Positions 12,089 to 35,757 of a stretch of 64,000 nt of DNA are shown here, one piece after another (position 1 is the first letter of the stretch; each line of letters begins with the position of its first letter). Both the position numbers and the translations under genes were made by a program. Source of the stretch: an uncultured Bacilli bacterium (GTDB lineage Bacteria > Bacillota_I > Bacilli_A > RF39 > UBA660). Location of the stretch: contig CALVKK010000001.1 of NCBI GenBank assembly GCA_944332645.1, forward strand, positions 30,059-94,058, written 5' to 3'. The notes beneath the pieces were generated by a model. The model made no database searches. It worked only from the letters and a program-made list of their open reading frames with translations, and was not told the DNA's origin.

Positions 12089-12117
12089 TTGCTTTTTTAA
12101 AAAAAATAATATATAAT
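12089..12117 (+). promoter_or_regulatory. Repressor promoter TTGCTT-17-TATAAT (copy at 48254..48282)
   Basis: Read directly. An AAAGGAGG RBS and the ATG at 12140 follow. Confidence 0.55.
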
Positions 12118-12139
12118 CAATATGAAAGGAGGAATTACT

Positions 12140-12778: not shown

Positions 12779-12835
12779 ACATGATGATGAAGCAAATAGA
12801 TATATTAAATTCCTATTAGAAAATAAAATTGATTA

Positions 12836-12891
12836 AAAATACGCTAGTACAGGTATTTTTAAAATAGATGTATGATTGGAGGTGTATTTTT
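12836..12891 (+). promoter_or_regulatory. Conserved about 55-nt leader, copy 1, upstream of the membrane-protein moron (also at 49001..49056)
   Basis: Hairpin AAAATAC-GCTAGTACAG-GTATTTT, then AAAATAGATGT and GGAGGTGTATT. Paralogous to 13353..13406. Confidence 0.4.
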
Positions 12892-13260
12892 ATGATATTT
12901 ATTTTGGATTTTTTTATTACAATGAGTTGTTATATGGTTTATCCTTTGGTAAAATTCGTTGTCTTAAACAAAGATGTGGAATTTACAACAAAAGATGTAA
13001 ACAAAACCTGTATTATAAATAGTATTGTATGGGCTATAATATTCTTAATTATAGGAATTAATATAATTCCAAATTACGAGCCTAACTTTGCACCTGCAAT
13101 GATATGGTATTGTATTAATTACAGCATTTATTATCTAAAATATCGCAATGAAGATAATGTAAAAATTTTCGATAATAGAACTAAAAAATTAGCAATTTTA
13201 GCACTTGTTTTGGTAATCATTGTTATACTAATATATGCATCTATATTTAAAAATATCTAA
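12892..13260 (+). CDS. Multi-pass membrane protein (lysogeny-module moron)
   Basis: Several hydrophobic segments. Start taken at the ATG after the GGAGG (MIFILDFF...). Confidence 0.55.
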   Translation: MIFILDFFITMSCYMVYPLVKFVVLNKDVEFTTKDVNKTCIINSIVWAIIFLIIGINIIPNYEPNFAPAMIWYCINYSIYYLKYRNEDNVKIFDNRTKKLAILALVLVIIVILIYASIFKNI

Positions 13261-13352
13261 TTGGCTTAGTAAACATTTTAACACATATATATAGTAGTGT
13301 CTCTAATAAGTATTATTATTTCAATATTTAATTACAATGATATAATTAGCTT

Positions 13353-13406
13353 AAAACTTGCTAGTACGGGAGTTTTAAAATAGATGTTAGATAGGAGGTG
13401 TATTAA
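13353..13406 (+). promoter_or_regulatory. Conserved leader, copy 2, upstream of the lipoprotein moron (also at 49518..49571)
   Basis: Hairpin AAAACT-TGCTAGTACGGG-AGTTTT, then AAAATAGATGT and GGAGGTGTATT. Confidence 0.4.
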
Positions 13407-13928
13407 GTGAAAAAATTACTAATGATTGGTTTAACTATGGTTTTACTTGCTGGAATTACAGGTTGTACAGAAACTGTTTCTCAAGATGAGTCTGGAAACG
13501 AAAAAAAAGAATTTACTTTAACAGAAACAGCTATAGTAAATGATACAAAAATAAAAATAAATTCTGTTACAAAATTAGAAAGAGAATGTTCTTGGGAGTA
13601 TGACGGAGAATGTCAAAGCTATACAGAGCCTGAAAATGATTATTTTTTAGTTATTGATTTAACAATAGAAAATAACGGTTCTGAAGAGTTAAACATATCT
13701 TCTATGATGAGTTTTGATTTAAAAGACTCAAACGGAGAAAGAGGAAAATATGCTTTATTAACTGAAGCTATTTCTAGCCAATTAGATGGCTCCATAATGT
13801 CTGGTGATTTATTAAAAGGGCAAATCGCTTATGATGTTAAAGATTCAGATACATTTAATTTTTACTATTTAGATAGTCTATTGGATGATCAAATTAAATT
13901 TGTTATCAATAAATCTGATATGCAATAA
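13407..13928 (+). CDS. Lipoprotein with a DUF4352-like Ig-fold domain (possible superinfection exclusion)
   Basis: Signal peptide with lipobox LLAGITGC. The YFLVIDLTIENNG pattern is typical of DUF4352. GTG start after a GGAGG. Confidence 0.7.
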   Translation: MKKLLMIGLTMVLLAGITGCTETVSQDESGNEKKEFTLTETAIVNDTKIKINSVTKLERECSWEYDGECQSYTEPENDYFLVIDLTIENNGSEELNISSMMSFDLKDSNGERGKYALLTEAISSQLDGSIMSGDLLKGQIAYDVKDSDTFNFYYLDSLLDDQIKFVINKSDMQ

Positions 13929-13979
13929 AATTGTATAAAAAAACTACCGCGGCAACGGTAGCAACGAAAACAAGTCTGC

Positions 13980-14009
13980 ATAATTGTACGTGTTTTCATG
14001 TACAATTAT
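13980..14009. promoter_or_regulatory. Perfect 10-bp inverted repeat ATAATTGTAC-N10-GTACAATTAT upstream of the integrase (copy at 50145..50174)
   Basis: Seen directly, 32 nt upstream of the int ATG. Confidence 0.45.
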
Positions 14010-14041
14010 AGCATAAAATTTAGTAAAAAGGAAGTGCTATA

Positions 14042-15559
14042 ATGAAGAATCAGGTTATAAATGAATTTAAAGAATGGCTTAAATCACAAAAATTTAATAA
14101 TACAATATATGAAAAAATTGCTGGAGCATATATAAGAATTTCAACTGATAAACAAGATGAATATTCTCCAATTTCGCAATTAAAAGCAATTTGGGAGTAT
14201 TGTGAAAGAAATAATATGTATTTAAATATTGATTATATTTTTATAGAAGATGAGGGAATATCGGGGAAAAACGCACTTAAACGAACTGAATTCCAAAATA
14301 TGATTGCTACTGCAAAAGCCGATAAAAAACCTTTTGACACAATTGTTTTATGGAAATTCAGCCGATTTGCTCGTAATCAAGAAGAAAGTATCGTATATAA
14401 ATCTCTATTAAGAAAGAAACACAATATAAATATTATATCAGTTTCTGAACCACTTCCTACAGGTCCATTTGGCGGGCTTATAGAGCGAATTATCGAATGG
14501 TTTGATGAATATTACCTTGTAAACCTTTCGGGCGAAGTAAAGCGTGGAATGACTGAAAAAGCACTAAAGGGAGGACTGCAATCAACTCCAGCTTTTGGAT
14601 ACGATGTTGATAAGCAAAATAACATTCTTGTAGTAAATGAAAGTGAATCTCAAATTGTAAAATTTATTTATGAAGAATTTACTATTAAAAACAAATCTAT
14701 GTTAGATATTGCAAAACAATTATATAAAATGAATATAAAGACAAAAAAAGGAAAAAGATTTGAAGCAAGAACAATTTATTATATTTTAGCTAATCCTGTT
14801 TATATAGGTAAATTAAGATGGACACCAACGGGTAAAACAAAATGGGATTTCAACAATGAAGAAAGTATAATAGTTAATGGAAAACATGAAGCTATAATTT
14901 CAAATGAATTATTTGAAAGAACACAAAATATTTTAAAAACTAGAATTAGAAAACCATATCAACGAATTGACAGTGAAGTTAATTATTGGTTGCGTGGTAT
15001 TATAAGATGTAAAGAATGTGGTCATACATTAATAAAACACAATAGAAAGAAATTAAGATGTAATGGATACAATCACGGACAATGTTCTAATCAAACTACA
15101 TTAGTAATGAGCGAAGTTGAAAATTTAGTTATACAACAAATAAAAAGAGATTTTAGTACTGGAATAATAAGTAATATTGTGGAAAAATCAAAAACCGAAA
15201 AAAAGGTAGACACAAAGTCAATAATTTTAAATCAAATTAAAATGAATGAATTAAAACTAAATAGAGCTAAAGAAGCTTACCAAAGTGGAGTTGACAGTTT
15301 AGAGGAATATAAAGAAAATAAAATAAAAATAGAAAAAGAACAACAATATTTAAAATCACAGCTAAATGAATTTTCGAATAATAACGAAAGTAATTTAGAC
15401 GATCATAAAAAAGAAATAATTGAAAATGGAAAAAAAGTTTACGAAATTCTATTAAATGAAAACATCTCAATAAGAGAAAAAAATGACATACTACATCAAC
15501 TAATTAATAAAATAGAATTTAACGAAAACACTTATGAATTAACGATTTTTTACAATTAG
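14042..15559 (+). CDS. Large serine recombinase (phage integrase)
   Basis: Resolvase-type N-terminus (AYIRISTDKQ catalytic Ser motif), a recombinase domain, a zinc ribbon (CKECGH...CNGYNHGQC) and a C-terminal coiled coil. 505 aa. Confidence 0.9.
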   Translation: MKNQVINEFKEWLKSQKFNNTIYEKIAGAYIRISTDKQDEYSPISQLKAIWEYCERNNMYLNIDYIFIEDEGISGKNALKRTEFQNMIATAKADKKPFDTIVLWKFSRFARNQEESIVYKSLLRKKHNINIISVSEPLPTGPFGGLIERIIEWFDEYYLVNLSGEVKRGMTEKALKGGLQSTPAFGYDVDKQNNILVVNESESQIVKFIYEEFTIKNKSMLDIAKQLYKMNIKTKKGKRFEARTIYYILANPVYIGKLRWTPTGKTKWDFNNEESIIVNGKHEAIISNELFERTQNILKTRIRKPYQRIDSEVNYWLRGIIRCKECGHTLIKHNRKKLRCNGYNHGQCSNQTTLVMSEVENLVIQQIKRDFSTGIISNIVEKSKTEKKVDTKSIILNQIKMNELKLNRAKEAYQSGVDSLEEYKENKIKIEKEQQYLKSQLNEFSNNNESNLDDHKKEIIENGKKVYEILLNENISIREKNDILHQLINKIEFNENTYELTIFYN

Positions 15560-15598
15560 TCTCTTTTGAAGTATGGTGGACCTTATCTCAAAAGAGAC
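15559..15598. other. attP (internal phage-phage junction of the tandem array)
   Basis: GTCTCTTTTGA-N18-TCAAAAGAGAC, perfect 11-bp inverted arms. Sequence identity with the phage-host junction at 51724.. ends at 15582. Confidence 0.7.
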
Positions 15599-15613
15599 AA
15601 ATTATTTTTCCCG

Positions 15614-17298: not shown

Positions 17299-19164
17299 CT
17301 ATTTCCAATTTCCAATAGCCAGCCATTCTAGATGACGTTGGAAATTTGGTGCTGTCCCATCTGTTTTTACATTATAAATAAAACCTGATGAATTAGTTTG
17401 AATTTGTGGTGTCGTTAATGTTGTTAATTGTGCAGAACCACCATAACCAGCCCCACCAATATATCTAATTCCTGCTTGAATTCTAATATCGAGTATATCG
17501 CTATTTGAAAACGCCGTTGGAAAATTTAAATCGGCATAGGTTTGATCTGCCGGTGCTACTACAGTACCAAATTGTAACAAAAAGCCTTTTTTATATTTTA
17601 TATAATTTCCATTAGAATTTTTATTTTGTTCAATAATAAAATCATCTAATAATTCATCGTTTATATTTATATTCCCTTTAATTTTTATGTCTCCTAAAAT
17701 TCTAACATAAGTTTCAGCAACTCTTATAATTGATTCACCTTTTTCAAGATTAAATGTTGTTATAACGCTCATCAATTTATCTGTCAAAATAAACTCAAAA
17801 TCATATTGTTTTTGGTAATTAAATGAACTGCCTAAACTTCCGTTAAAGCTAAAATTGTTTTCATTTGTTGTTAAAGTAATTGTTTGATAATCTCCGTATT
17901 CTCCACCTTTTTCTTTATAGCGATATTTAAATTCTAATGTGTTTGAAGTAGCACCAAATGAAGAATTAAACCAAACACCAGTTAAATCAGCGTTTATCGT
18001 ATTAGATGTCGTTTCAGGTCGACTTAAAGTAAACTTACTGAAATTAGGCTTAATATACTCAATATATTTCCCTAGAGCATTTAAATCATATTCTTCCTCG
18101 CCTACCCAATTACGACTATCTTTTGCCGACACAGTTACGATATTACTATCTATACCACTGTTGAACGTTGTTTCTTGAGCTGTCGAACTTGAATTGCCCC
18201 AAACCGTAGAATAACTTGAAATATCGGCTTGCTGTTGAGCCTGAGCAGTTATTGTTACTTTTGGTTTTGAAATATATTTAATTATTTTGGAACCATCGCC
18301 AGTTAGTGCGATTGTAGTAGCATTAGTATCCACAACTGTTGCCGACACAATAGGTGGGGTCTCTTCTATGTTCAAAGTCAAATCATAGGATTTTTGACCA
18401 ATTTGTGTATTTCCAGAATATGTATACGCATATAAAATCCCTAAAACACTCGTAGACGTTTTATTTTTAGAAAGAATTGTTGTTAATTTTTCTGTTGAAA
18501 TTGTGTAACTTATATTTTTGTTGGCGGTTTTATTTGCGATTTCTTCTGTGGTTACTGTTCCATCGGTATTTACTGCATTATAAATTAATGTTGTTGTAAA
18601 AGAATCATCGGTTTTGTTGATCGCTATATTAATTGGATCGTCAATGTACGTTTTTGAAATAACAACCGTATTTGCTCTTGCTATAGCTGGTAATTCTAAA
18701 TCAATATCAACAACCCAATCTCTTCCTGAAGCACTATTGTGAAATGGTATTAAAGCATAAATTGGTATTGTTTTAGTACCATCGTCTTCATGTTTAATCG
18801 TAAAATCATAAACGTAAGCACCATCAACTAAGTAAGCACCATCAACTAAACTGCCACTACCACTACCACTTGCTCTTTTAAACGGATAATTATCAGTTAA
18901 ATAAAATTTATCATCAATAGTTGCTTGTCTAAAATCGTAAGAAGTTTTTGAAGTTTTTGTCGAATTGTCAGCTTTCACAGTTAAGGTCTGATTATTTAAA
19001 TTATAAGTACTACCAGATAATTTTAAACCCCACGGTCTAATTCTTACCAAAGATGTATTGTTGATTTGATTTTGGCTGACAACCATTACATCAATTCCTG
19101 ATTCATGAGAAAATGTAGACGTTTCTGGTGTCCCAGTATACGAATACCATTCACCTATATTCAT
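17299..19164 (-). CDS. Tail fibre / receptor-binding protein
   Basis: 621 aa, beta-rich and Ser/Thr/Asn-rich. It is the last structural gene before the lysis cassette. Confidence 0.5.
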   Translation of the reverse strand: MNIGEWYSYTGTPETSTFSHESGIDVMVVSQNQINNTSLVRIRPWGLKLSGSTYNLNNQTLTVKADNSTKTSKTSYDFRQATIDDKFYLTDNYPFKRASGSGSGSLVDGAYLVDGAYVYDFTIKHEDDGTKTIPIYALIPFHNSASGRDWVVDIDLELPAIARANTVVISKTYIDDPINIAINKTDDSFTTTLIYNAVNTDGTVTTEEIANKTANKNISYTISTEKLTTILSKNKTSTSVLGILYAYTYSGNTQIGQKSYDLTLNIEETPPIVSATVVDTNATTIALTGDGSKIIKYISKPKVTITAQAQQQADISSYSTVWGNSSSTAQETTFNSGIDSNIVTVSAKDSRNWVGEEEYDLNALGKYIEYIKPNFSKFTLSRPETTSNTINADLTGVWFNSSFGATSNTLEFKYRYKEKGGEYGDYQTITLTTNENNFSFNGSLGSSFNYQKQYDFEFILTDKLMSVITTFNLEKGESIIRVAETYVRILGDIKIKGNININDELLDDFIIEQNKNSNGNYIKYKKGFLLQFGTVVAPADQTYADLNFPTAFSNSDILDIRIQAGIRYIGGAGYGGSAQLTTLTTPQIQTNSSGFIYNVKTDGTAPNFQRHLEWLAIGNWK

Positions 19165-19174: not shown

Positions 19175-20407
19175 CTACAATAAATCCTCTACTGTTTGAA
19201 TGTTAGAAACCAAATGGTGTATATCTGTTACTGGTTCTCCATCTTCATCAGTAGCTTTTACAAATTTTAAATAAGCAATTTGAGCTGTATTTGTAACGAT
19301 TAAATCGTCAAAACCACTACCTTTATCATTTAAGACTGATTTTAATGTCGTGTAATTATAAACTCTAATACCCTGGTTGTCCAAAGCTGAATTAATAGGA
19401 TCATTGGCTGACTGTATCTTTAATTCATCAGTTGTAAATGTGTATTTCATTTCATTTATTGTACTGTTAGCCGTAGATAAATCATTTTTTACTTGATTTA
19501 ATTCATCATTTGTATTTGATAGGTTAGCATTTAAATTTGAAATGTCGTCTTGCTGACTAGCTATGTTGTTTTGGTTTTCAACAACTGCGTTATTTAATTC
19601 ACTAACGTTTTGGGATGTTTGTCCGACAGTTATACCAAGTTCAGATGTTGTTTGTTGAACTTCAGTATACTGTTGACCTAATACGCCAATTTGCTCCCCT
19701 TGTTCATTTACTAATTCTTGAGTTTGAGTTATTTTTGTTGTATGTTCGTCAACATCGCTTTTAATTTCTAATACACTACCGGATAATACAGTCAAATCTT
19801 GTCCAACTTGAATTGCATATGTATCATCAGTATATTTTAAATTATTTATAAAATCATTTTCAGCAAATGTTTGCCCTGCTGGTTTGCTTATTTGACATAT
19901 ATAAATTTCATTATTTTTAATCCACATATCGCCATTGTCATAAGGTGGTGTTGGTTGTTCTAAAAACACTCGTCTTTTACTGTCAGCTGTATCTTTTGCT
20001 GAATTAGCTAATGCTAAAGCTTCAGTTAAATCTGAATCAGTTAATTTTAGCCAACTATATATACTATTTTCTAAAGAAAAACGATAAGCATAACCAGTTT
20101 CCTTATCATAGTATAAATCGCCTAAATGGTTGTTTTTTTCTTCGTCAGTAGACCAACTACTAGCTGGTTCATTTTGCAATGTCGGAACTCCAGAATAAAA
20201 CCAGGTTGTAATGTTTCCATCAACCTGGTCTTGAAGTTCTTGGATTGTTTCAGTAACTGAACTAACAAAATCCTTTAATTCATTATTTACTTCCTTTATT
20301 TCTTGATTTTGCGAATTATAATCTTGCTTTAATTTTTCAATTCCAGCCAGATCATATTTTCTTTCCAAATCTTGAGCTGTTCTAACACCGTTCATATCTT
20401 GTTTCAT
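19175..20407 (-). CDS. Tail fibre-associated structural protein
   Basis: The TWFYSGVPTLQNEPASSW...HLGDLYYDKETGYAYRF motif is recalled from Firmicute phage tail and minor structural proteins. A coiled-coil C-terminal half follows. Confidence 0.5.
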   Translation of the reverse strand: MKQDMNGVRTAQDLERKYDLAGIEKLKQDYNSQNQEIKEVNNELKDFVSSVTETIQELQDQVDGNITTWFYSGVPTLQNEPASSWSTDEEKNNHLGDLYYDKETGYAYRFSLENSIYSWLKLTDSDLTEALALANSAKDTADSKRRVFLEQPTPPYDNGDMWIKNNEIYICQISKPAGQTFAENDFINNLKYTDDTYAIQVGQDLTVLSGSVLEIKSDVDEHTTKITQTQELVNEQGEQIGVLGQQYTEVQQTTSELGITVGQTSQNVSELNNAVVENQNNIASQQDDISNLNANLSNTNDELNQVKNDLSTANSTINEMKYTFTTDELKIQSANDPINSALDNQGIRVYNYTTLKSVLNDKGSGFDDLIVTNTAQIAYLKFVKATDEDGEPVTDIHHLVSNIQTVEDLL

Positions 20408-23400
20408 TAGCTATACACCCTACCATTTCTAACTGTAAATCCTAATTGCTCTAGTATAGTCTTTTTTTCAGCAATAGTCATATTTTGTGAATTAATATAT
20501 TCTATAATTTGGTTATCATAGTCTTTAAAAGAACTATAGTTCAATTTAATCAACATCGCTTTTTGTGGTATTGATAAATTCAAACCATTAACATAATTAA
20601 TAACAGCATATTTTCTTTGATTACTATCTTCATATTGCTCTTTTATATCCTTAATCGCATCGTTATAATTTTGATATTTTGAATAAGTCGTTATTTGAGC
20701 TATTGTTGAATATTTAGCTGGATTTTCATATGAATAATCAATTTCTTCTTTATTAATATAGTAATCACTAGGCGTTCCACCGTCGCTAATGTACATATTA
20801 ATTTTATTGTACTCATCACTCATAGGAATATTTAAAACCTCTTCACGAGCTTTATTATAAGAAAAATTAACTATCTTATTGATAATTTCAGCTTTATTTT
20901 CGTCACTCATAGCATTATAGATTTCATTGTCCAATAAATCTTTAACATTGTCCTCTATAATTTGACCCGATATACTTTGATATTCAGCTTTTTCACTAGC
21001 GGATAAAGTGATTTTATTTCCGTCTTGATTAATATAATAAGGTGCTACTCTAGGCATTATAGTTTTATCGCCAGTTTCTTTATAAAGTCTATAAATTTCA
21101 CTCGCACTTTCACTTATATTTTCTGTACTAACATTAGCCGGGTTAAAGAATACATTGAATATATTATTATTTCCACCATATTTTTGTATATCCCTACCCA
21201 ATGTGTCTACACTTGGAGATAAAGTTTGACTTAAAAAAGGAATTTTCGCTTTTACTTTGTTAATCGCGGTTTCCAATGGTTTATCGTATTCAAAGCTTGT
21301 CCTTTGCGTGCCATCAACCATATCAGTTATTTGTTTGAAAAATGTTGGAATTGCGCGAGAAGGTAATCCTAACACTTCTTCCCATAATTTTTCAGGTACA
21401 GATCCTGTGTCGCTGAAAACATTATTTATACTTTCAAAAAACGACTGTTCTAAAACAACATTGAAGCCTTCGTCTAAAGATGATGTTATATTTTCTAATA
21501 AACTAGCTCCTTCTTTTTCTTTTTGAACCATGTTAGCAGTAATTGCTAATGGTGCAGCCAAAGGCTGAGCCCAATCATATGTGAAAGTTTTATCGCCTAT
21601 TTTTATTGAATAAGAATTAACCCCTAAAGTATTTTTTAAAAAATTAGATACATCTTTATCGTCGTCACTTTCACCACTTGTAATACCAGCTTTTGCCAAA
21701 GCATAACCCAATATATACAACATAGTTCCCGCTGTTGCTTTACCTAATGTCTGAACAAAATCGTGTTGTAATTGCGGAGTAAATTGTCCATTAGTTAAAC
21801 TTCTTTTAAATCTTATTCCTTTATTTATGCTGTTTATTAAGCCAACTGGAGAATAATCAACAATAGCTTTAGTTAAATTAGCTGGCGTTTTAGCAAACGG
21901 TATTAAAATATCTCCTAATCCGTATTCTTTACCCATATTCATCATTCTTCTTATATTCATAACAAAGCGAGTGTAATTATTATTATCTTGCCATGTTCTT
22001 TGTAATGCTTCAGAAGTGGCAATATCAATCATATCTTGTGTTACTTCAGTAGTATTGTTTAAAACCATTTGATTGTTTATTGAGTTAACAAAAGAAGCTT
22101 CATAAAATCCCCTATCTCCAGCATCCAACATAAAACTCAAAAAATTGTCTACTCTATTTAAAGCTTTACCTATCTTTGTATTATCATTAAAGGACTTACC
22201 CTGACTGATCTCAAAACGATTACCTTCGATATTTCTTGTGTTAATGCCTTTTTTTAAATCATTGTAACTTTCAAATAATCCTTTCTTAAACCCTTTACCA
22301 TAATTTTTCAATGATGTTGTTCCTGTAGTTCTAACGTTAGTTGATTTCGCTAATCTTTTATCTACTATACTACCAATCAAATCACTAAATGAATTTACTG
22401 GAGCAATTAAAGCATTACCTACTACATTTCTAACTTGTGTTTTAGGATTGAATAACATAGATATACGCATCCAAGCTTTAATTCCGGCTCCTTTTTGAGG
22501 TGGTAACTTGTCTGTCATTACTTTTTGAATTTCAGCTAATTTTACTCTTTTATCATATCCGTCTTGCATTTGAGATACTTCTTGCATTGTATCTAAAATA
22601 AACTGTGTTTCTTGTGGTGTTAATTCAAAATCGCTTTTATATTTATTTATCCAATTTTGACTCTTGTTCTTTACCATACGCTGAAATGCTTCATCTAATT
22701 CTGACTGAGCATAATATACCATACCTTCTGGAGTTAAACGATTTAAAATATTAAATGCTTGAACGGTTTGACCAGCTTTGGTACCCATATCACGCAATTT
22801 TTTTGCAACTTGTACCATAGAATGATTTAATTCATTTTTTGTGTTTAAATCAGTTGTTTTAGAAATTTGATCTTGATATTGTTTTAACAAAATCCATCCT
22901 TCTGCCACATCAATACTATCTGCATTTTCAGATTCTTGTCTAAACCATCTTTCTACTTCACTTTTACCATTAGTGTTTAATCTTTCAAATGCTTGATTTA
23001 AGCTTTCTTCATTTGTGACTTCTCTATAATAACTAACATCCTCATCAGATAATATAGCATTTTTACTATCTTCATTTAACATATTAGTTTTATTTCTAAT
23101 ATTACTAGCAAACTTACTCTTACCATTACCAGTTGAAACGTTAGCATTTTGTAATATTGGTGTTGTATTTGCATCTTCTTTTGTTAAATTAGATATTTCA
23201 GCAGGATTTAATGTTTTTCTAGTTGGTAATTTAGTATTTTTCAATTCCATTTTTCTTATATCTTCTTGAGTTGGAACTTTTATATCTCGTGTATTATTTG
23301 ATTGATTTTGCATATTAATATTATTAGATGATTGCATAATTTGACTATTGTCTAAATTTGTGCTATCATTTACATATAAAGAACTCGTATCGCTGTCCGT

Positions 23401-24987
23401 TTCGGACGTTAGACTTTGGGGCATTAATGCATCAGAAGCAGTGGCAGAGTTCTTTTTTTGTGCTTTAATTTTCCACATAGTTTTAACTTCCAAATTATGA
23501 TTTTTGTTAGACACATAACTAACTAAATAATAATTATCTCCTATTCTTTTTTCAAAAACTATTGCCGAATTATTATTTTCTGTCGTGCCTGATAATCTTA
23601 CATTATCATAATTTGTTACAATTTGCGGTATCAATTTAAAATCGTCGGATGTTATGGGAACTTGTCCACGATTATTCTCATATTCTAACTTTCCATGATT
23701 TTTATATGTATGTCGTACGGCATTAGTTGATAATGAAATATTATAATTTTCTAAATTAATTCCAAGAGTTTGTTTTATTTTGTTAGCAATTTTTTTCCCC
23801 AACTTACCAAAATATAACTTGGCATTACTCGGAACTTTAGATGCCGTATCTACAAAAGATGATATGTCGCTTTCATTTTGAACTACTTTTACTTTACCAT
23901 TCTTAAAATTTTCTATTTCATGTTGAGTATACGGAACAATATCGTTTTGACTATTATCTATTATTGGTAAATTAGCATTATTTTGACTATTTTGTTCTTG
24001 TTGTACTAAATCATATACTGTTTTTGGGGTGTTTTGAGTAATATTTGTATTTGATGTATTCTTTACATTACTTATAGTATTTGGAGCATCTAAAATACCA
24101 CCAACTGCAGATCCTACTATTCCGCTTTCTAATACTTCTTTCCAATAATCTGATGTCCTATATTGATTTAAAGCATCTTTACCTTTATATGTTGTTTGTA
24201 ATATAGGATTTACTAAAGATGAAACAACTTCTTCTACACCTTCCCCTAAAGCATTTTTTAAATAGTTTTTTGCGATTTCTTTTCTAGTAGTCCCTCCTAT
24301 TTGCTTTAATCCTGGAATTCCTCCACTTATTTTTTCTGTTAGCAGTTCAGTGCCTGCACTTCCTAAACCATATAACATAGATTTACCTAAATTTCCAGAT
24401 TCTCTATATGCTTCATTAGTGCCTCCAGAAAAAGCCTTTGTTCCAAGTAAAACATTCGAACCAATATGTTTAGCTTTTAATCCACCACTCATGGAACTCC
24501 CAATAGCAATGGTTGGCAACATTTCACCAACTGCGGTCATAACTTTTCCACCTAAATTATTTTCTTTGATATAGCTATTTTTATCAACTTCTTTATTCCA
24601 CAAGTTTTGGTTATCGTTTTTGTATGGATTTGTTTCTTCACCAGCGGCTTTATTAACAAGCATGTTAGTTAAGCTTACGTCCGATGCTTCCATCAATCCT
24701 TTAGCTCCTTCGTCATCACCGAATATTTTTTTTATCCCAGCAGCAATTTGTAATGGAGTATCAACAAAAGTCGCTTCTAGGCCTTTCAAAGCCCCCTGAC
24801 CTAAATATTGTACTCCTGCAGAAACAGTTTTTAATAACGACTTGTCTTCTTTTTCATTATTTAAATTATTTTGTTGATTAGGTTGATTAATATAATTATT
24901 TAACCTATTTCTTATATTACTCGTACTGTTCACGGTAAGATTTGTGTTACCTGTATATTTACTTAAACGATCGCGAATATTGGACAT
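20407..24987 (-). CDS. 1526-aa polyvalent virion (probable internal/ejected) protein with an embedded Barnase-EndoU-ColicinE5/D-RelE-like (PBECR-type) nuclease-like domain
   Basis: Gly-rich and hydrophobic N-terminal region. Residues about 351-512 contain NAVRHTYKNHG...VPITSDDFKLIPQIV. A long helical C-terminal region follows. No canonical tape-measure features. Confidence 0.55.
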   Translation of the reverse strand: MSNIRDRLSKYTGNTNLTVNSTSNIRNRLNNYINQPNQQNNLNNEKEDKSLLKTVSAGVQYLGQGALKGLEATFVDTPLQIAAGIKKIFGDDEGAKGLMEASDVSLTNMLVNKAAGEETNPYKNDNQNLWNKEVDKNSYIKENNLGGKVMTAVGEMLPTIAIGSSMSGGLKAKHIGSNVLLGTKAFSGGTNEAYRESGNLGKSMLYGLGSAGTELLTEKISGGIPGLKQIGGTTRKEIAKNYLKNALGEGVEEVVSSLVNPILQTTYKGKDALNQYRTSDYWKEVLESGIVGSAVGGILDAPNTISNVKNTSNTNITQNTPKTVYDLVQQEQNSQNNANLPIIDNSQNDIVPYTQHEIENFKNGKVKVVQNESDISSFVDTASKVPSNAKLYFGKLGKKIANKIKQTLGINLENYNISLSTNAVRHTYKNHGKLEYENNRGQVPITSDDFKLIPQIVTNYDNVRLSGTTENNNSAIVFEKRIGDNYYLVSYVSNKNHNLEVKTMWKIKAQKKNSATASDALMPQSLTSETDSDTSSLYVNDSTNLDNSQIMQSSNNINMQNQSNNTRDIKVPTQEDIRKMELKNTKLPTRKTLNPAEISNLTKEDANTTPILQNANVSTGNGKSKFASNIRNKTNMLNEDSKNAILSDEDVSYYREVTNEESLNQAFERLNTNGKSEVERWFRQESENADSIDVAEGWILLKQYQDQISKTTDLNTKNELNHSMVQVAKKLRDMGTKAGQTVQAFNILNRLTPEGMVYYAQSELDEAFQRMVKNKSQNWINKYKSDFELTPQETQFILDTMQEVSQMQDGYDKRVKLAEIQKVMTDKLPPQKGAGIKAWMRISMLFNPKTQVRNVVGNALIAPVNSFSDLIGSIVDKRLAKSTNVRTTGTTSLKNYGKGFKKGLFESYNDLKKGINTRNIEGNRFEISQGKSFNDNTKIGKALNRVDNFLSFMLDAGDRGFYEASFVNSINNQMVLNNTTEVTQDMIDIATSEALQRTWQDNNNYTRFVMNIRRMMNMGKEYGLGDILIPFAKTPANLTKAIVDYSPVGLINSINKGIRFKRSLTNGQFTPQLQHDFVQTLGKATAGTMLYILGYALAKAGITSGESDDDKDVSNFLKNTLGVNSYSIKIGDKTFTYDWAQPLAAPLAITANMVQKEKEGASLLENITSSLDEGFNVVLEQSFFESINNVFSDTGSVPEKLWEEVLGLPSRAIPTFFKQITDMVDGTQRTSFEYDKPLETAINKVKAKIPFLSQTLSPSVDTLGRDIQKYGGNNNIFNVFFNPANVSTENISESASEIYRLYKETGDKTIMPRVAPYYINQDGNKITLSASEKAEYQSISGQIIEDNVKDLLDNEIYNAMSDENKAEIINKIVNFSYNKAREEVLNIPMSDEYNKINMYISDGGTPSDYYINKEEIDYSYENPAKYSTIAQITTYSKYQNYNDAIKDIKEQYEDSNQRKYAVINYVNGLNLSIPQKAMLIKLNYSSFKDYDNQIIEYINSQNMTIAEKKTILEQLGFTVRNGRVYS

Positions 24988-26130: not shown

Positions 26131-27828
26131 CTATCGTTTTACGTATCCGCCAACAAAAGCTTCTATAGTACAACTATAAAGTTTCATTGGCGAATTCGAA
26201 CTAAATTCTATTTGTAAATCTTTAAATTTCTTTTGTTTTATTCTATAAACGATATATCCCTTTGACTCTTCATAAGTATCAATGGTAACATAATCTTCGC
26301 TATCCTTTTTTACCCTTACAGTAATTTCACCCTCACAAACAGACGTACCACCTCTCTTATTAGTGGTTTTTAAAAATTGGGGCGCATTAAAATCATATTT
26401 AGGTAATCTCCATATTGAGATTATATTACTATTTGTCTTGGTTAAAGTATAAATTTGATTATTCATACCTAGATAAAGTGTTCCATCTTTTACACGAGTA
26501 CAAGTAACATCGTAAGGTAATTCCCAATAATACCATTCATATTCAATACTAACTCCCTGATATTTTTGTCTTGAATCGGCTAAATAAACATGTTTATCAA
26601 TAAACACAAGTAAATAACCTTCCCATTCTTCTAATAACATATTTTTATAATTTGTTTCTGATAACAACTTACTATCAACCATTGAACTTCTATGACTTAA
26701 TACCTGTTCAGTAGTTACATCACTACTTATAGCTTCCATTCCCCTATCGCTAAAAAAACATATATCATCATTAAAATTAATCCCAGTTGCTATACAACCA
26801 GTAGAAATACTAGAATGCGTACTAGGATAAATTTTACCGTAAGTATTGTCTATTACTGGATTATGATAATAAATAGTCGTATTAGATTGAGAAGGTTCTT
26901 TAAATACCCATAAAGCATTGTTACCTGCTACCATTGATTTGACTGGAGAAACATCTAATCCTTCGTTATAATAATCTAAATCGCTAACATACTCCGGATC
27001 TTCTAGTGAACTATGAAAGACAATATTAGGATAGTTTTGATTACCACTAAAGAATATACGATTGTCAAATTCAGTTAATAAAGTACATTTTAAAATTCTA
27101 TCTCTATAACCCTGTATTGTTTTACTAAATGTAATTACTACATTGTCCTGTCCTGTCGTAATTGGTTCGGCTGGTGCCGTACTAAATGTTACTTTACCAG
27201 CTGTTCTATCCACTGTTAAACCCATACCTTCTACTATTGTTATGTCGTTCACAACCGCAGTAACAGTATAATTAGTATCTAAATTATCCGTGTCTAGCTG
27301 ATAAACCGTACTTGTCCCATCGGCTACAAAAGAATTTTTTCTAACGCCAGTTAACAAATTAACGTCTTGATATGTCGTTCCAGCTCCGCTAGGCGATTTT
27401 CCAGTTGAGGTAATAGGAATAGTGCCCTCAACACTTTTTACCTCTGTACCGTCGTATTTTAGGTAATTTATTCCATCCTTTATATATAAAATTTCATTAA
27501 ATACGAAATATTGGCTTTTAGCAATATTCATACCTACAAATATTTGTTCACTATTATCATATAATTTGGTACCACAATGTACGATTTTATGAAGAGTATC
27601 ACTTTTAGTATAAAAAAACATACCGTAAATAACATTGTCATACGTTTCTTTTAATTCGATATCCGGTCTGGTTTCTACACAGCGAGCATTTTCTTTATAA
27701 TTTTTCCACATATTCAAAGAAAAAGGACTTCTTGAAGCGACAATTTCTCCATCGTTGAAATCTACACCTCCAAAGTCCTTGTATTCTTTTCTTACTAAAT
27801 CGCCACTAGAAGCCATAATCATCACCAC
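26131..27828 (-). CDS. Large structural protein, possible tail hub/nozzle (beta-propeller-like)
   Basis: 565 aa, beta-rich, three genes downstream of the capsid gene in the structural block. Start codon uncertain. Confidence 0.35.
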   Translation of the reverse strand: MVMIMASSGDLVRKEYKDFGGVDFNDGEIVASRSPFSLNMWKNYKENARCVETRPDIELKETYDNVIYGMFFYTKSDTLHKIVHCGTKLYDNSEQIFVGMNIAKSQYFVFNEILYIKDGINYLKYDGTEVKSVEGTIPITSTGKSPSGAGTTYQDVNLLTGVRKNSFVADGTSTVYQLDTDNLDTNYTVTAVVNDITIVEGMGLTVDRTAGKVTFSTAPAEPITTGQDNVVITFSKTIQGYRDRILKCTLLTEFDNRIFFSGNQNYPNIVFHSSLEDPEYVSDLDYYNEGLDVSPVKSMVAGNNALWVFKEPSQSNTTIYYHNPVIDNTYGKIYPSTHSSISTGCIATGINFNDDICFFSDRGMEAISSDVTTEQVLSHRSSMVDSKLLSETNYKNMLLEEWEGYLLVFIDKHVYLADSRQKYQGVSIEYEWYYWELPYDVTCTRVKDGTLYLGMNNQIYTLTKTNSNIISIWRLPKYDFNAPQFLKTTNKRGGTSVCEGEITVRVKKDSEDYVTIDTYEESKGYIVYRIKQKKFKDLQIEFSSNSPMKLYSCTIEAFVGGYVKR

Positions 27829-28798: not shown

Positions 28799-29764
28799 TT
28801 AAAGACTTGTTTTAATACAAACAACCTCTTTTGGTCTAACTAATAAACCACCATAAACATACAAACCTTTTTGAGCAGTTTCAAAACCATCTTGAACTTC
28901 ATAATTAACAACTTTTTCAATTTGCTCAGCAAAAGCCACAGCTTTACCAGTTCTTAAGAAGTTAAGAACCTTAGCATATTTAGTAATTTCATAATAAGTA
29001 GAAATTGATGTTTTAACAGGATTAGTAACTTCAGTATAAACATATGACCCTTCATTACCACTTCTTGTATAGTAAGTTTTACCCTCTACTACATCTTCGT
29101 CACTTGTTAAAGTATAAGTTGGTTCTAATTTAGGTAATAAGTTTTCAATAGAAATTAAAGCATTTCCATATTTGCCTAAAAATCCTTTCTTAGCCATTTC
29201 AACATTGTTAGTATATAACTCTGTTAAATTTTGACGAATTTTAGTGAAAAATCCTGGGTCAGTTTCTAAATATAATTCTTCTTTTTGTTTTACATTATTT
29301 CTATATAAAACAGTAAATCCGTCTTCTACTTTTTCAATAGCAGTAGTTTTATTAACTGAAGTACCATCAATAACTTCTACATTGCCAGCATCGACACCAT
29401 CATTAACCATTTTTGCAACATATTTGTCACCTTCTTCAGTTAATGCAATAGCACCTTCTTGGCAAATAGCTTCTAAAGCTCCTGGCACACTTTGTGCTTT
29501 ATATACATGGTCAATTCCTACATTGAAATAATACATTTGATCAAGTTCAAATTCTTGTTTTGTTACACTAGCAGGGTCTCTTTTAATAGCTTGTCCTGGT
29601 GTATATTTTCTTACTAAAGGTTTGTCTGCATTTAAAATAATTACTTTTCTTGCATTTTTAGTATCACGTTCATATTTAAAATTACAGTGATTTCTTAATG
29701 AAGTGATAGTTCTTAAGGCTCTTTCGTAGCCTTGATGCCACATTGTTTGAAGTGCAGCGTTCAT
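28799..29764 (-). CDS. Major capsid protein (HK97 fold, P22-coat-like family, tentative)
   Basis: Portal-scaffold-capsid synteny. The N-terminus is MNAALQTMWHQGYERAL. The ORF-track start is a TTG; the ATG at 29764 follows a GGAAGGGA RBS. Confidence 0.7.
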   Translation of the reverse strand: MNAALQTMWHQGYERALRTITSLRNHCNFKYERDTKNARKVIILNADKPLVRKYTPGQAIKRDPASVTKQEFELDQMYYFNVGIDHVYKAQSVPGALEAICQEGAIALTEEGDKYVAKMVNDGVDAGNVEVIDGTSVNKTTAIEKVEDGFTVLYRNNVKQKEELYLETDPGFFTKIRQNLTELYTNNVEMAKKGFLGKYGNALISIENLLPKLEPTYTLTSDEDVVEGKTYYTRSGNEGSYVYTEVTNPVKTSISTYYEITKYAKVLNFLRTGKAVAFAEQIEKVVNYEVQDGFETAQKGLYVYGGLLVRPKEVVCIKTSL

Positions 29765-29782
29765 AAAATCATTCCCTTCCAA

Positions 29783-30745: not shown

Positions 30746-32470
30746 CTACATTGTTTGAGTTGCTTCATTTACCATTTGTGTACCAATTTGGGATATGTTC
30801 ATTATATCCTGTTGTCCTGCTAGTAATTGTTGAGTTCTAACTTGCATTTGTTCAGCCTGCATTTGCATCTGTTGTATTACTTGAGAACGTTCTTTTCTGC
30901 GTTTTAAAAGTTCTATTAATTTACTTCTTGGCATTGTTGAATCATCATCTAATAAACTAACATAATCCTCTAATAATTGTTGATTTTGAGGTAAGAATAA
31001 TTGTGATTGAGTTAAATTTTCTATTGATACCTCTTGTGCATATTTATCATATGCTGATTTTGGTGTAACATCAATTTTAATATTAAGTTTTAGTCTTTCT
31101 AAAACTGATTTAGGTATAATTATTAATTCTTCTACCGTTTCACCTGTCATTACATCAGTTGTCTCATTTAAAACAGTCAAATTATCAGAATATGTCTTTA
31201 ACATGTCAAAAATAATTACACCTATATCTTCAATGAATTGTAGTACATTAGCACTTTGTTCATTTAGTGGTTGTTCGCTTGCTCTTTGAACTGCCAAAAT
31301 TGCTTTACCACTAGCTTCATCAGGCTTTATTTGCCCTGTTGCCATATCTCCAGCTCCAGCTAATTCTCTTGATACCGTGATAAGCTCATTTTGTAAATTA
31401 GCAATATCTGGGCTTATTGTACCTGGGCTAGTAATTTTAAAGTACTTATCAATATCATCTGCATTAACATCGCTAACCCAAATAGTGGCACCGACCTTAT
31501 TTACAGCTTCTGGATTTTGAATTTTATCTTCATTAACAACCTTATATGGATAAGCGATATTTTTGGCAATAAATGCTCTTCTTGTGGCAGTTTTGTTGAC
31601 TTCAATTTGATTTGCTATATGTTGTTCTACCTCTCCTACTCCACGGGCACTTCCTTCGCAATCTTCCCAATTTAAATGTGCTACTGGGTAATATGTAAGT
31701 CCAGTATCTTCATCTTTTTGAATTGTGACATACTTGACTGATTCAGAGAAATGAACAGTACCTCCTTTTTTATATAAAAAGGTAACAATAGTAACCATAT
31801 CATCTACTTCTTCTCTTGAGTCGTCTCCCGATTCATCTTGAGTATAGTTATCTCCATGAATATTTAAAATTTCTTCGTCACTAACACCTTTACTTTTTGC
31901 ATATTCACGTGCATTAATAACATTAGAACGTCTTTTTATGAGTATATATGGTTGATTTTGTATTTCATCATCATTTTCATTTCCATACATGACATCAACT
32001 TTAGATTTTAATTCGATTTTTGGAACACCATCTTTTTCATTCCAATACCAATAAGCTATTATTTCGCCATTTATAGCTGACTTTCTAACCGCTTTTTTTA
32101 ATCTATAATCTAACTTATTAATTTCCCATATTTTAGAAGCCTTTTTTGTAAGCATCTCACTTGCCTTTTTAGCAACACTCCTAAATTCTTGAGACTCAAA
32201 GTTATCACTATTATAAATAATTGCATAATTTGTACTTGTAACTACGCCAACCTTATATTTGACTATCGGCTTAATATAATTAATTGAAATTAATTCTACA
32301 TTTTTATCAACGATTGCACCTTCCCATTGATCACGATTGAAAAATCTAAAATTTCGGTTAGTGTTTTCGTAATATCCTTTATTTCGCATATACATTGCAT
32401 GTTTTTCATATAATTGCCATATATCAGTTTCCATAAGTTTTGTTAAATCATCTGTTCCCATTAGTTTCAC
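30746..32470 (-). CDS. Portal protein
   Basis: 574 aa, two genes downstream of the terminase large subunit. Has an N-terminal NFRFFNRDQWEG motif and a Gln-rich C-terminus. Confidence 0.75.
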   Translation of the reverse strand: MKLMGTDDLTKLMETDIWQLYEKHAMYMRNKGYYENTNRNFRFFNRDQWEGAIVDKNVELISINYIKPIVKYKVGVVTSTNYAIIYNSDNFESQEFRSVAKKASEMLTKKASKIWEINKLDYRLKKAVRKSAINGEIIAYWYWNEKDGVPKIELKSKVDVMYGNENDDEIQNQPYILIKRRSNVINAREYAKSKGVSDEEILNIHGDNYTQDESGDDSREEVDDMVTIVTFLYKKGGTVHFSESVKYVTIQKDEDTGLTYYPVAHLNWEDCEGSARGVGEVEQHIANQIEVNKTATRRAFIAKNIAYPYKVVNEDKIQNPEAVNKVGATIWVSDVNADDIDKYFKITSPGTISPDIANLQNELITVSRELAGAGDMATGQIKPDEASGKAILAVQRASEQPLNEQSANVLQFIEDIGVIIFDMLKTYSDNLTVLNETTDVMTGETVEELIIIPKSVLERLKLNIKIDVTPKSAYDKYAQEVSIENLTQSQLFLPQNQQLLEDYVSLLDDDSTMPRSKLIELLKRRKERSQVIQQMQMQAEQMQVRTQQLLAGQQDIMNISQIGTQMVNEATQTM

Positions 32471-32724: not shown

Positions 32725-32873
32725 TATTTATCACTCTTTTTCTTATTCTTCTTTTTTGGATTTGTTTCTTTCAAAACTCTTTTTACTGTACTTTTGATTA
32801 CTTTATTGGTCTCTTCTTCCCCTAAAAATTCATTAGACATTGCTCTTAATTTGCGTAGCATTGCTTTTTTCAT
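32724..32873 (-). CDS. Possible 49-aa basic protein
   Basis: Hand-translated as MKKAMLRKLRAMSNEFLGEEETNKVIKSTVKRVLKETNPKKKNKKKSDK. ATGA overlap with the terL stop and TAATG overlap with the next start. Confidence 0.35.
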   Translation of the reverse strand: MKKAMLRKLRAMSNEFLGEEETNKVIKSTVKRVLKETNPKKKNKKKSDK

Positions 32874-34240
32874 ATTATAACTATCTCCTCTCCCCAATCT
32901 TTTCGTATCGGTTTCTCAAAATCTAAATCAAATGTTTTCTCAACATTTTTTATTTCTTTAGTAGGTGCTACTCTACTTACACAAAAATACCTTAATGCAT
33001 CTGTAATATGTGTTGGTTCGTGTGGCTCGGTAGCTACATCATTAGGCTCTTTTTCGTCATGTTGTAACTGTGGCAAATATTTAATTAAATTAATACAATT
33101 ATTAAATATCTTCAAATCACTATCTTCATATATTTCTCCTGTTTGTTCACTTCTTAATTTTCTTACCTTTAACCATTCTTTAACATTTAACCATCCGGCT
33201 ATTCGATTGTTACTAGCTTTAGCTAAATCAATACCCCCCTCATAAAACAATTCAGCTGTACTTTTACCAGTATCTCTATTACGATTCCATAAATCAGGTG
33301 GTGCATATATATATTTATATCTAGCCTTTCTCATATAACTTTTTAATACTTGTCTTGCTTCGCTTACTATTAAATTACTTTTATGTATTTCGTTATAAAC
33401 ATAAGCTTTTCCTTTAGTATCTATAGCAACAAAAAGGACTGCAAACATATCTAATCCATAGTCCATAGCAATATATCTATTCCAATTATCTGGTATTTCA
33501 AATGGCTCTATCACATGTATTCGCCTTTTAAATTCTGGAAAGAACATTCCATCATAAATATCCCAATCACCATATTTTAGTGCCTTTCTTTCTTTTTCTG
33601 GTAAAGCATCTAGTCTTTTTATATAGTCAGGGTCATATTCTAGCATGAATTTATTATCAGTAACTAAACTTGGAATAAATATTCTAGTTACTTCTTCTCC
33701 GGTTTCTAATTTACAGTTATGAATTACATTAGGTTCGCCTATATCTATAAATCTTTCTTTTACCCATACATGCCCAACACCACCTGGATTAGTAGAACTT
33801 TTCATTCCCTTTGGATAAGGATTAGCACCACGACATCTTGAAATCATATATGTATACATAAATTCGGTGAAATGAGTTAATTCGTCAAATCGAATTACAT
33901 CATATTCAGCTGATTGGTATTGATAAACGTCTTTTTCATATTGAATATAACCAAAATCTATAATACTGCCATTATCAAATTTCCATGTATGCTTAGAGTT
34001 ATTATAACTCGCTATTGATAATGGATAGAAATCTAAACTTACACGAATTAATGATTTTTCTAAATCAGCAAATGTGCTTCTAAATATTATCTGTTTACTT
34101 TTAGGATATTTCAAAGCATAAAGTAAAGCATCAACTAATTGTCCATAAGATTTACCACCACCAGCAGCACCACCAAATAATGTCTCAAACGCTTCTGAAT
34201 TAATAAATTTTTTTTGTTTTTTAGTAATCGATATATCCAT
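32870..34240 (-). CDS. Terminase large subunit
   Basis: Walker A is GGAAGGGKS. ATPase and nuclease halves are present. 456 aa. Confidence 0.9.
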   Translation of the reverse strand: MDISITKKQKKFINSEAFETLFGGAAGGGKSYGQLVDALLYALKYPKSKQIIFRSTFADLEKSLIRVSLDFYPLSIASYNNSKHTWKFDNGSIIDFGYIQYEKDVYQYQSAEYDVIRFDELTHFTEFMYTYMISRCRGANPYPKGMKSSTNPGGVGHVWVKERFIDIGEPNVIHNCKLETGEEVTRIFIPSLVTDNKFMLEYDPDYIKRLDALPEKERKALKYGDWDIYDGMFFPEFKRRIHVIEPFEIPDNWNRYIAMDYGLDMFAVLFVAIDTKGKAYVYNEIHKSNLIVSEARQVLKSYMRKARYKYIYAPPDLWNRNRDTGKSTAELFYEGGIDLAKASNNRIAGWLNVKEWLKVRKLRSEQTGEIYEDSDLKIFNNCINLIKYLPQLQHDEKEPNDVATEPHEPTHITDALRYFCVSRVAPTKEIKNVEKTFDLDFEKPIRKDWGEEIVII

Positions 34241-35222: not shown

Positions 35223-35247
35223 ATAATCACCACATTTTGGTTCTCGA

Positions 35248-35322
35248 GGCTAGAATCGAACTAGCACATTATAGGTTCAAAGCCTATTGCCTTACCGTTT
35301 GGCTACTCGAGAATATAAAAAA
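35248..35322 (-). tRNA. tRNA-Gln (anticodon UUG) with encoded CCA
   Basis: Hand-folded. Acceptor TCTCGAG/CTCGAGA (7 bp), D stem GCC/GGC, anticodon arm ATAGG-CTTTGAA-CCTAT, T arm GCTAG-TTCGATT-CTAGC, discriminator A + CCA. Confidence 0.8.
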
Positions 35323-35444
35323 GAAAAGAGGTAAACTTTTCTTAACAACCCACCTTACATACATTCGTACATGGAGTGGGCAAATATAAAAGGGGTTTTA
35401 CAATGAGATGTCTTTTAAACTATCTCACAGTATCATTATATAAC

Positions 35445-35478
35445 AAGTTTTGTGCAATTTTGTGCAATCTTTATTTTT
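35445..35478 (-). promoter_or_regulatory. Putative activator-dependent late promoter: tandem 10-bp repeats (minus strand ATTGCACAAA x2) 8 nt upstream of a TATAAT
   Basis: Repeats at 35459..35468 and 35469..35478. The -10 is at 35445..35450. No -35-like hexamer at the correct spacing. Confidence 0.4.
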
Positions 35479-35494
35479 TAACACAAAAAAAGAG

Positions 35495-35525
35495 CCTATC
35501 AATAACGATAGGCTCAACAAAGGTC
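35495..35525 (-). terminator. Strong intrinsic terminator ending the DUF2828 / tRNA-like RNA transcript
   Basis: On the minus strand, GAGCCUAUC-GUUAUU-GAUAGGCUC is followed by U7. Confidence 0.75.
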
Positions 35526-35528
35526 TTA

Positions 35529-35596
35529 TTTCTATCTTAACTGGATAGCGTCCTTAACAAACTTTTTATATTGCTGTATGACCTTTTATTTTTTAC
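35529..35596 (-). ncRNA. Stem-loop domain closed by AAAGGUC/GACCUUU, with an inner CUAUC-CAGUUAA-GAUAG hairpin
   Basis: Complementarity read directly. No family assignment. Confidence 0.3.
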
Positions 35597-35619
35597 TAAC
35601 AAATTTAACAAAGCCATTT

Positions 35620-35723
35620 TTTTATTTAGGTTGGAATCGAACCAACTACATTTTCGTTACTAGCGAAACGCTCTACCAAATGAGCTACTAATTCTTTTTG
35701 CAGTAATGGCTTTTAATATATGA
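35620..35723 (-). ncRNA. tRNA-like RNA (anticodon-position AGU) enclosed by a 9-bp outer helix; alternatively an atypical tRNA-Thr(AGU)
   Basis: D arm GCTC-ATTTGGTA-GAGC, anticodon arm TTTCG-CTAGTAA-CGAAA, T arm GTTGG-TTCGATT-CCAAC. The acceptor GAATTAG/CTAAATA has 2 mismatches. No CCA. The flanks AAAGCCATT and AATGGCTTT are complementary. Confidence 0.55.
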
Positions 35724-35757
35724 TATAACAATTCCCTATATTTCCATTATATCATAT

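Follow-up and report, generated by a model that had tools for sequence, protein, structure and literature searches.

A prophage of an uncultured gut Bacilli bacterium (lineage RF39, UBA660) encodes a 1526-residue protein that carries a bona fide PBECR3 domain, far beyond chance resemblance, and this domain sits in a slot of the protein that close relatives fill with other effector domains. The gene lies in a stretch of 64,000 nucleotides, here called the window (assembly GCA_944332645.1, contig CALVKK010000001.1, positions 30,059 to 94,058 of the forward strand). Because its orthologues show the mosaic of effector domains that defines polyvalent proteins, we classify the window protein, by sequence comparison, as a classic polyvalent protein, a member of a class of large multi-domain proteins proposed to accompany phage DNA into the cell. 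PBECR domains are predicted to be ribonucleases (RNases) injected by phages, and as many as a quarter of polyvalent proteins are reported to contain one (Iyer et al. 2017, PMC5512222). We consider it rather probable that the window protein is packaged, enters with the DNA and holds a tethered PBECR3 RNase directed, early in infection, against a particular class of RNA; we infer its packaging and ejection, its RNase chemistry and its target from the position of the gene and from family precedent. Identification of the domain is routine, as a standard Pfam scan suffices to annotate it; domains of the PBECR3 kind are already known and the window copy is typical of a large family. New here are the boundaries of the unit and of its slot, the replacement of the cassette among near-identical prophages, the tie to Page-like podophages and the lone homologues in chromosomes.

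A PBECR3 unit longer than its Pfam model

The initial annotation had placed an RNase-like domain of the PBECR kind at residues 351-512, which correspond exactly to 23452..23937, and the peptides that it quoted (LSTNAVRHTYKNHGKLEYENNRGQVPITSDDFKLIPQIVTNYDNVRL, YYLVSYV and LEVKTMWK) were all found within these residues. The Pfam hidden Markov model search that it had proposed as a check assigned the domain to PBECR3 (PF18812; 81.4 bits, E 6e-23, cut-off 30), residues 395-513 exceeding the curated gathering threshold over nearly the full model. The motif that it had put forward, RHxxKxHG ... ITxxDFxLIPxI, proved to be the consensus of 29-31 homologues, and the low-complexity linkers noted on both sides are the NQST-rich residues 301-340 and 531-570.

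Searching with residues 340-520 retrieved 31 proteins, mostly of ~170-250 residues, at near-full coverage and 45-76% identity. Since a profile built from these 31 recovered a full-length unit of ~180 residues in every giant homologue bearing PBECR3, we took residues 344-524 as the evolutionary unit. The unit exceeds the Pfam model in length and recurs whole in giant proteins as well as in lone proteins of ~180 residues. Its N-terminal subdomain (residues ~350-412, ~50 residues beyond the Pfam model), which includes an invariant KLYFGK (390-395), precedes the RNase-like core, and a tail of the form KKNSAT...TSETxSGTS was found in PBECR3 polyvalent proteins and in several lone copies and not with other cassettes. 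Across the 31 diverse cores Y415, N416, H431, E437, Q442, D449, F450, S493 and T503 were invariant, and H426, R440 and G441 were conserved in at least 90%. The pattern described for the PBECR clade, a histidine in a helix together with a conserved Thr/Ser in strand 4 (Iyer et al. 2017, PMC5512222), is present in the window domain, H426 and H431 being part of core helix 1, which spans positions 82-92 in the unit model and 10-20 in the core model, and T503 belonging to strand 4. Judged from conservation and from the model, H431 and/or H426, plus T503, are the likely active-site residues.

The AlphaFold2 model of the unit (181 residues) had a mean predicted local distance difference test (pLDDT) score of 89.2 and a predicted template modelling score of 0.84. 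The core was modelled alone because the whole unit, compared with the PDB by Foldseek, gave chance-level NTF2-like matches only; its model (pLDDT 89.7) shows three helices followed by four antiparallel strands. The top PDB match of the core model was BrnT (3u97), a RelE-like RNase toxin of Brucella (Foldseek probability 0.98, template modelling scores 0.47/0.58, E 0.05, 11% identity), and HigB2 ranked seventh. Thus the structure prediction proposed by the initial annotation yielded a confident model, whereas the match to solved structures was borderline for the core and not significant for the unit. BrnT and HigB2, the best structural neighbours of the core model at this borderline E-value, have a small alpha/beta RNase fold in which helices precede an antiparallel sheet, and the predicted topology of the core fits such a fold; unlike RelE and BrnT, the domain has His/Thr as candidate catalytic residues rather than the RelE set. 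The core comparison agrees with the Barnase/EndoU/ColicinE5-D/RelE (BECR) fold, short of proving it. Among the predicted viral structures of BFVD, matches to the unit (E 3e-11 to 2e-4) fell within giant phage proteins from metagenomes that carry the name 'Nuclease' or 'PolyVal ADP-ribosyltransferase'. The sharp boundaries of the unit and its confident model mean that it can be expressed and mutated directly. A type II toxin-antitoxin system was considered and rejected, as the domain is embedded in a 1526-codon open reading frame (ORF) with no antitoxin partner and its lone homologues have no partner gene.

The domain occupies an exchangeable slot

Pairwise mapping over the homologues divided the protein into four parts: an N-module, a variable slot, a body and a shared C-terminal piece. 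The slot was delimited at the DNA level by two relatives (L006 and L007) that are 98.6-98.9% identical to the window up to 23951 and again 97.4-99.2% identical from 23275 onward; between these points 1325 nt replace the 677 nt of the window and encode a HExxH zincin peptidase cassette (THEITHAIE). In other relatives the same slot holds MuF_C (PF18819; proteins P0006-P0008 and P0011), a peptidase with LPD23 and a weak, sub-threshold SprT-like match (P0009) or a peptidase with ART-PolyVal (P0024), the HExxH motif itself being present in P0002, P0009 and P0024. This amounts to a clean natural experiment, in which prophages 97-99% identical on both flanks differ only in a slot of ~0.7-1.3 kb that carries PBECR3, a zincin peptidase, MuF_C, LPD23 or an ADP-ribosyltransferase. 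Altogether, MuF_C, the zincin HExxH peptidase, LPD23, ART-PolyVal, LPD38, LPD3 and ParB were found across relatives and orthologues. The presence of other polyvalent-protein domains in the slot bears out the initial description of a polyvalent-type giant protein of the structural module.

The N-module is the most widely shared part, recurring at ~55-99% identity in dozens of proteins of 1500-2150 residues, and may serve for packaging or anchoring. The body (residues ~589-1414) matched no recognised family in a Pfam scan. In P0021 (locus L005) the N-module and the PBECR3 unit are 99% identical to those of the window and the body is instead of the LPD38 type; the last ~112 residues (1415-1526) are common to both kinds of protein. 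As an hhalign comparison of the window-type body with the LPD38-type body and with Page_20, a podophage protein described below, was not significant (E 0.3-0.6), we treated the window-type and LPD38-type bodies, on sequence grounds, as alternative and unrelated.

The window protein resembles the PBECR3-bearing polyvalent proteins of phage type (PMC5512222) in its above-threshold model match, its His/Thr pattern, its giant size beside virion genes, its mosaic orthologues and the existence of lone versions. Unlike typical polyvalent proteins, it has one recognisable effector, PBECR3, and lacks the zincin hub, which is frequent in such proteins and not obligatory: no HExxH occurs in its 1526 residues. 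It also differs from described polyvalent proteins in that no described family takes in its N-module or its body and in the length of its unit, which includes the N-terminal subdomain and the KKNSAT...TSETxSGTS tail. Exchangeable toxin-like domains in structural-module proteins are likewise a feature of the MuF polymorphic toxins of temperate phages (Jamet et al. 2017, PMC5576092), and MuF_C, counted as a PBECR-clade domain, fills in relatives the very slot that PBECR3 fills in the window. Assignment to these toxins was rejected, as there is no Phage_Mu_F match, the effector is internal and not C-terminal, and the 1-nt overlap with the downstream gene leaves no adjoining spare ORF for an immunity gene. 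The PBECR3 profile compared with the MuF_C cassette of P0006 as a single sequence by hhalign gave no significant match, the resemblance being by eye only.

In a PHROGs scan of 26 homologues we found scattered matches only (one 'internal virion protein', one protease and ParB), and from 50,697 phage records a tblastn search with the giant protein returned only one short unannotated contig, at the domain region and with 30% identity. Among species-representative genomes, a close relative of the giant protein occurs in one only, a metagenome-assembled genome (L015; 78% identity, the PBECR3 unit 98% identical). An IMG/VR phage protein of 3190 residues (L029, 4586..14158), a far larger polyvalent relative with this unit, combines DnaJ, PARP-like, ART-PolyVal, PBECR3 and LPD38 domains.

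The gene lies in a podovirus-like structural module

The gene of the 1526-residue protein is flanked on one side by the terminase, portal and head genes and on the other by tail and lysis genes, all on one strand, and thus has the portal-terminase context of a phage. A Shine-Dalgarno sequence, GAGAGGTGA, lies directly 5' of its ATG; 15 nt separate it from the upstream gene and it overlaps the downstream gene by 1 nt. The neighbours on the terminase side also include proteins of 124, 184 and 372 residues without assigned role, and a CHAP-LysM endolysin gene follows downstream on the same strand. Promoter and terminator scans were at chance level except for a terminator after the endolysin gene. 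No tape-measure, tail-tube or sheath family was matched by the structural-module proteins scanned.

For the portal and for the 565-residue protein encoded upstream, the closest relatives from cultured phages are in the Page group of Bacillus megaterium podophages (Table 1), and by sequence comparison the prophage is distantly related to these Page-like podophages. Electron microscopy has shown Page to be a podophage (PMC3990757). The structural module of Page ends in the gene of a hypothetical protein of 1679 residues, Page_20 (NC_022764.1, locus L074, 19786..24825), with an LPD38 match (E 3e-27); the last ~740 residues of Page_20 are homologous to the P0021-type body (hhalign probability 99.8). 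The LPD38 match and this homology would allow Page_20 to be annotated as a virion protein of the polyvalent type. In the nearest cultured phage group, too, a giant protein ends the structural module; unlike the window protein, it has no Pfam PBECR domain, and it did not align significantly with the window body (hhalign E 0.6).

A podovirus-like particle has no tape measure, and for this reason a giant protein of its structural module is most simply taken as an internal or ejected protein, by analogy with those of N4, T7 and P22. We propose that the 1526-residue protein would be produced late in the cycle of a podovirus-like temperate phage, together with the proteins of the particle, then packaged and carried into the next host cell alongside the DNA. 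The PBECR3 unit in the slot, a predicted metal-independent endoribonuclease of the BECR fold, would then, as a tethered module, cleave a particular class of RNA early in infection and leave 2',3'-cyclic phosphate ends, with H431 and/or H426 of the first core helix and T503 of strand 4 as putative active-site residues. The proposed logic, packaging of a protein made late so that it reaches the cell along with the DNA and acts ahead of phage gene expression, is that of T4 Alt, the N4 virion RNA polymerase and the T7 gp16 and P22 ejection proteins, and the position of the gene in a podovirus-like structural module also matches that of virion-delivered enzymes. No sequence or structural relationship to the T4, N4, T7 or P22 proteins was detected, and delivery of the window protein is suggested by analogy.

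Lone PBECR3 genes in host-type chromosomes

In an exhaustive search with the profile, 1.84 billion cluster representatives yielded 3658 clusters at E <= 1e-3, 190 of them at E <= 1e-30; the carriers among the best 150 listed range from giants of 1000-3970 residues down to short proteins of ~100-500 residues. Single lone PBECR3 genes (~180 residues, 45-60% identity to the window unit) were found in host-type chromosomes at three sites: between the mreC cluster and spmA/B, where the gene is retained across two diverged lineages (L001-L004, L011-L012), directly after rplU-prp-rpmA (L008-L010), and adjoining RNase J (L013-L014). Near these lone copies there were no phage genes, beside them there was no partner gene of a toxin-antitoxin pair, and PADLOC gave no match. 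In a neighbour-joining tree the polyvalent copies formed essentially one clade and the chromosomal lone copies fell into separate, deeper clades.

The persistence of lone copies, at sites of which most leave no room for an immunity gene, is not what a broadly lethal RNase would lead one to expect; it suggests that the target is narrow, that the unit inhibits itself or that its role is not catalytic. Their existence suggests a specific rather than a general target, and this target is the interesting thing to find. One extension of this thought, which we regard as quite unlikely, is that PBECR3 is an RNase of narrow specificity common to phages and hosts and that the phage delivers a host-type version that, at entry, degrades one specific host RNA or competes for it, with the N-terminal subdomain as a built-in regulator. 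If true, the target might be, for example, an RNA that serves a defence system as guide or sensor.

A further lone copy, P0112 (L075, L076), groups with the phage polyvalent clade and has the same linker tail. Its neighbours on short contigs are a 513-residue protein, a release-factor gene of the RF-1/PCRF family and two helix-turn-helix regulators. P0112 may represent a cassette that stands alone in a different mobile element.

The proposed delivered RNase and alternative readings

Several observations weigh against a delivered RNase. PHROGs, NCBIfam and PADLOC gave no match for the 1526-residue protein or for the domain, and neither the protein nor the domain profile had a sequence match in the PDB. 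The whole unit gave nothing significant in the PDB by structure (best E 0.065), so that the borderline core match at E 0.05 is the best among solved structures. The 1526-residue protein has no HExxH peptidase to free the RNase module. In the literature, a 2026 preprint on BECR classification not being covered, we found no biochemical test of any PBECR domain. Finally, the lone copies argue against a broadly toxic RNase, two of the three chromosomal sites having no room for an immunity gene and the third having ~0.7 kb of further sequence upstream.

The absence of a peptidase that could release the domain after entry would suit a role in the producing cell, where the domain might, late in infection, for example degrade transcripts of the host or of early phage genes in the manner of T4 RegB, with the giant protein left out of the particle or present in it as a structural part only. 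The gene is expressed with the late genes and RegB-type roles have been cited as precedent (Iyer et al. 2017, PMC5512222); yet a 1526-residue carrier with exchangeable effectors in a structural operon is the architecture predicted for delivered proteins, and alternative cassettes such as ART-PolyVal have virion-delivered precedents, T4 Alt among them, which makes a late-acting domain unlikely in our judgement. We also think it improbable that PBECR3 in this lineage is no nuclease and that the unit is a non-cleaving binder of RNA or of another ligand, or has a substrate other than RNA. Copies that are 43-75% identical keep the His/Thr pair and several polar residues invariant, as is typical of an active site, and the inactive PBECR domain of Mu gp30 is said to have lost these residues (PMC5512222). 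In favour of such a role are the tolerance of lone copies by host chromosomes that have no immunity gene for them, the PBECR domain of Mu gp30, seen by Iyer et al. as without activity and as a probable RNA binder (PMC5512222), and the weak structural match to RNases.

The size of the protein and its position ahead of the tail genes would fit a tape-measure-like or purely structural tail protein in which the domain is a passenger without a role in infection, and the next gene (410 residues) weakly matches tape-measure PHROGs through its coiled coil. We rejected this reading as highly improbable: the 1526-residue protein has no tape-measure match in Pfam, PHROGs or NCBIfam, no tail-tube, sheath or chaperone families were found, and the portal and a structural protein are related to those of podophages, the nearest cultured relatives. 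In addition, strong conservation of residues and the swapping of enzymatic cassettes imply selection on the payload. A delivered protein with a tethered PBECR3 RNase is thus the reading that we favour.

The tRNA and RNA-ligase cluster

The initial annotation had linked the domain, speculatively, to phage-encoded tRNAs and an RNA ligase elsewhere in the genome. These genes are present, in an RNA-related cluster at 35238..38589 upstream of the terminase gene (copy of its far end at 974..2424) that also encodes unknown proteins of 142 and 130 residues. The link would be that a delivered RNase cuts host tRNAs and that these are then replaced or repaired by means of the tRNA-Gln, tRNA-Thr and RNA ligase of the phage, and the occurrence of both tRNAs, the ligase and a Ro60-like protein in one genome speaks for it. 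Homologues of the ligase (47-80% identity) were found on 44 IMG/VR phage contigs of 5-131 kb (loci L030-L073), half of which (22/44) have tRNA genes in the fetched locus, some of them in large arrays of up to 22 genes. On none of the 44 was a PBECR3 unit found within 10 kb of the ligase, a range that the distance of ~13 kb in the window also exceeds, and the three IMG/VR contigs that carry PBECR3 are not among the 44. Two relatives with a 90% identical terminase (L016 and L025) have neither the ligase cluster nor PBECR3, a joint absence that is compatible with the link and uninformative.

The end chemistry also stands against such repair. ATP-dependent RNA ligases of the PF09414 type require 3'-OH and 5'-phosphate ends, and BECR-type cleavage leaves 2',3'-cyclic phosphate and 5'-OH ends; because of this mismatch the ligase cannot seal BECR-cut ends without an end-healing enzyme, and no end-healing kinase or phosphatase was identified among the genes scanned. 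Moreover, phages are unlikely to destroy tRNAs that they need, as argued by Iyer et al. (2017, PMC5512222). On balance we regard the replacement or repair of cleaved tRNAs as very unlikely, an idea that gained no support rather than one that is refuted.

Prophage boundaries and other features

The features of the protein and of its surroundings are listed in Table 1.

Table 1. Position of the protein, its parts and other prophage genes in the window
Feature	Position	Strand	Remark
Gene of the 1526-residue polyvalent-type protein	20407..24987	minus	ORF, 1526 codons; 110 homologues
N-module, residues 1-345, Gly-rich	23953..24987	minus	Ends in NQST-rich linker 301-340
Exchangeable effector slot, 677 nt, residues ~346-571	23275..23951	minus	DNA breakpoints
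Conserved PBECR3 unit, ~180 residues, 344-524	23416..23958	minus	Profile search and alignment
Pfam PBECR3 (PF18812) match, residues 395-513	23449..23805	minus	81.4 bits, E 6e-23; profile positions 2-114 of 115
H426 (23710..23712) and H431 (23695..23697), first core helix	23695..23712	minus	Candidate catalytic histidines
T503, fourth and last core strand	23479..23481	minus	Alcoholic residue of the published PBECR active-site pattern
Tail KKNSATASDALMPQSLTSETDSDTS, residues 511-535	23383..23457	minus	Accompanies the PBECR3 cassette
C-module, residues 571-1526	20410..23277	minus	Body ~589-1414 and last ~112 residues
621-residue DUF859 / tail-fibre-like protein	17299..19164	minus	
410-residue coiled-coil tail protein	19175..20407	minus	Weak tape-measure PHROGs match via coiled coil
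Upstream 565-residue protein	26131..27828	minus	~30% identity to 'virion structural protein' Page_15 of Bacillus podophage Page
Major head protein	28799..29782	minus	
Portal	30746..32470	minus	Pfam P22-like portal family; ~25% identity to Page-group podophage portal
Large terminase	32870..34240	minus	
tRNA-Gln(UUG)	35238..35312		
tRNA-Thr(AGU)	35622..35694		Unusual anticodon
462-residue Ro60-like vWA/DUF2828/DUF7788 protein	35758..37146		
206-residue RNA ligase (PF09414)	37580..38200		Duplicate 1415..2035

Positions 1..15582 of the window are exactly identical to 36166..51747 (offset 36165), and the order along the window is left part of the phage, right part, left part again and host. From this order and the identical stretches it follows that the window contains ~1.4 copies of a prophage of 36,165 bp, either as a tandem prophage or as a circular form assembled together with the integrated form. 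Comparison of the junctions (15555..15600 and 51720..51765) revealed that after ...GTATGGTGGACC the phage sequence at 15583 completes an inverted repeat, TCTCTTTTGA...TCAAAAGAGA. By sequence, the junction at 15583 resembles attP, and that at 51748, which is followed by host sequence, resembles attR. A large serine recombinase of 505 residues is encoded at 14042..15559 (copy 50207..51724) and stops 23 nt short of the junction. At the boundary of phage and host, the first ORF (51731..52213) encodes a 160-residue fragment of a manganese-catalase / CotJC-like protein (profile positions 29-189), and the prophage therefore appears to be inserted in a gene of this kind; ddl, mreB and a murA-like gene follow on the host side.

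The prophage also encodes an N6/N4 DNA methyltransferase (3903..4676, copy 40068..40841) and a LexA/CI-like repressor with a helix-turn-helix and an S24-peptidase domain (12122..12778, copy 48287..48943). The G+C content of the window is 28%, and its host belongs to an uncultured lineage of low G+C.

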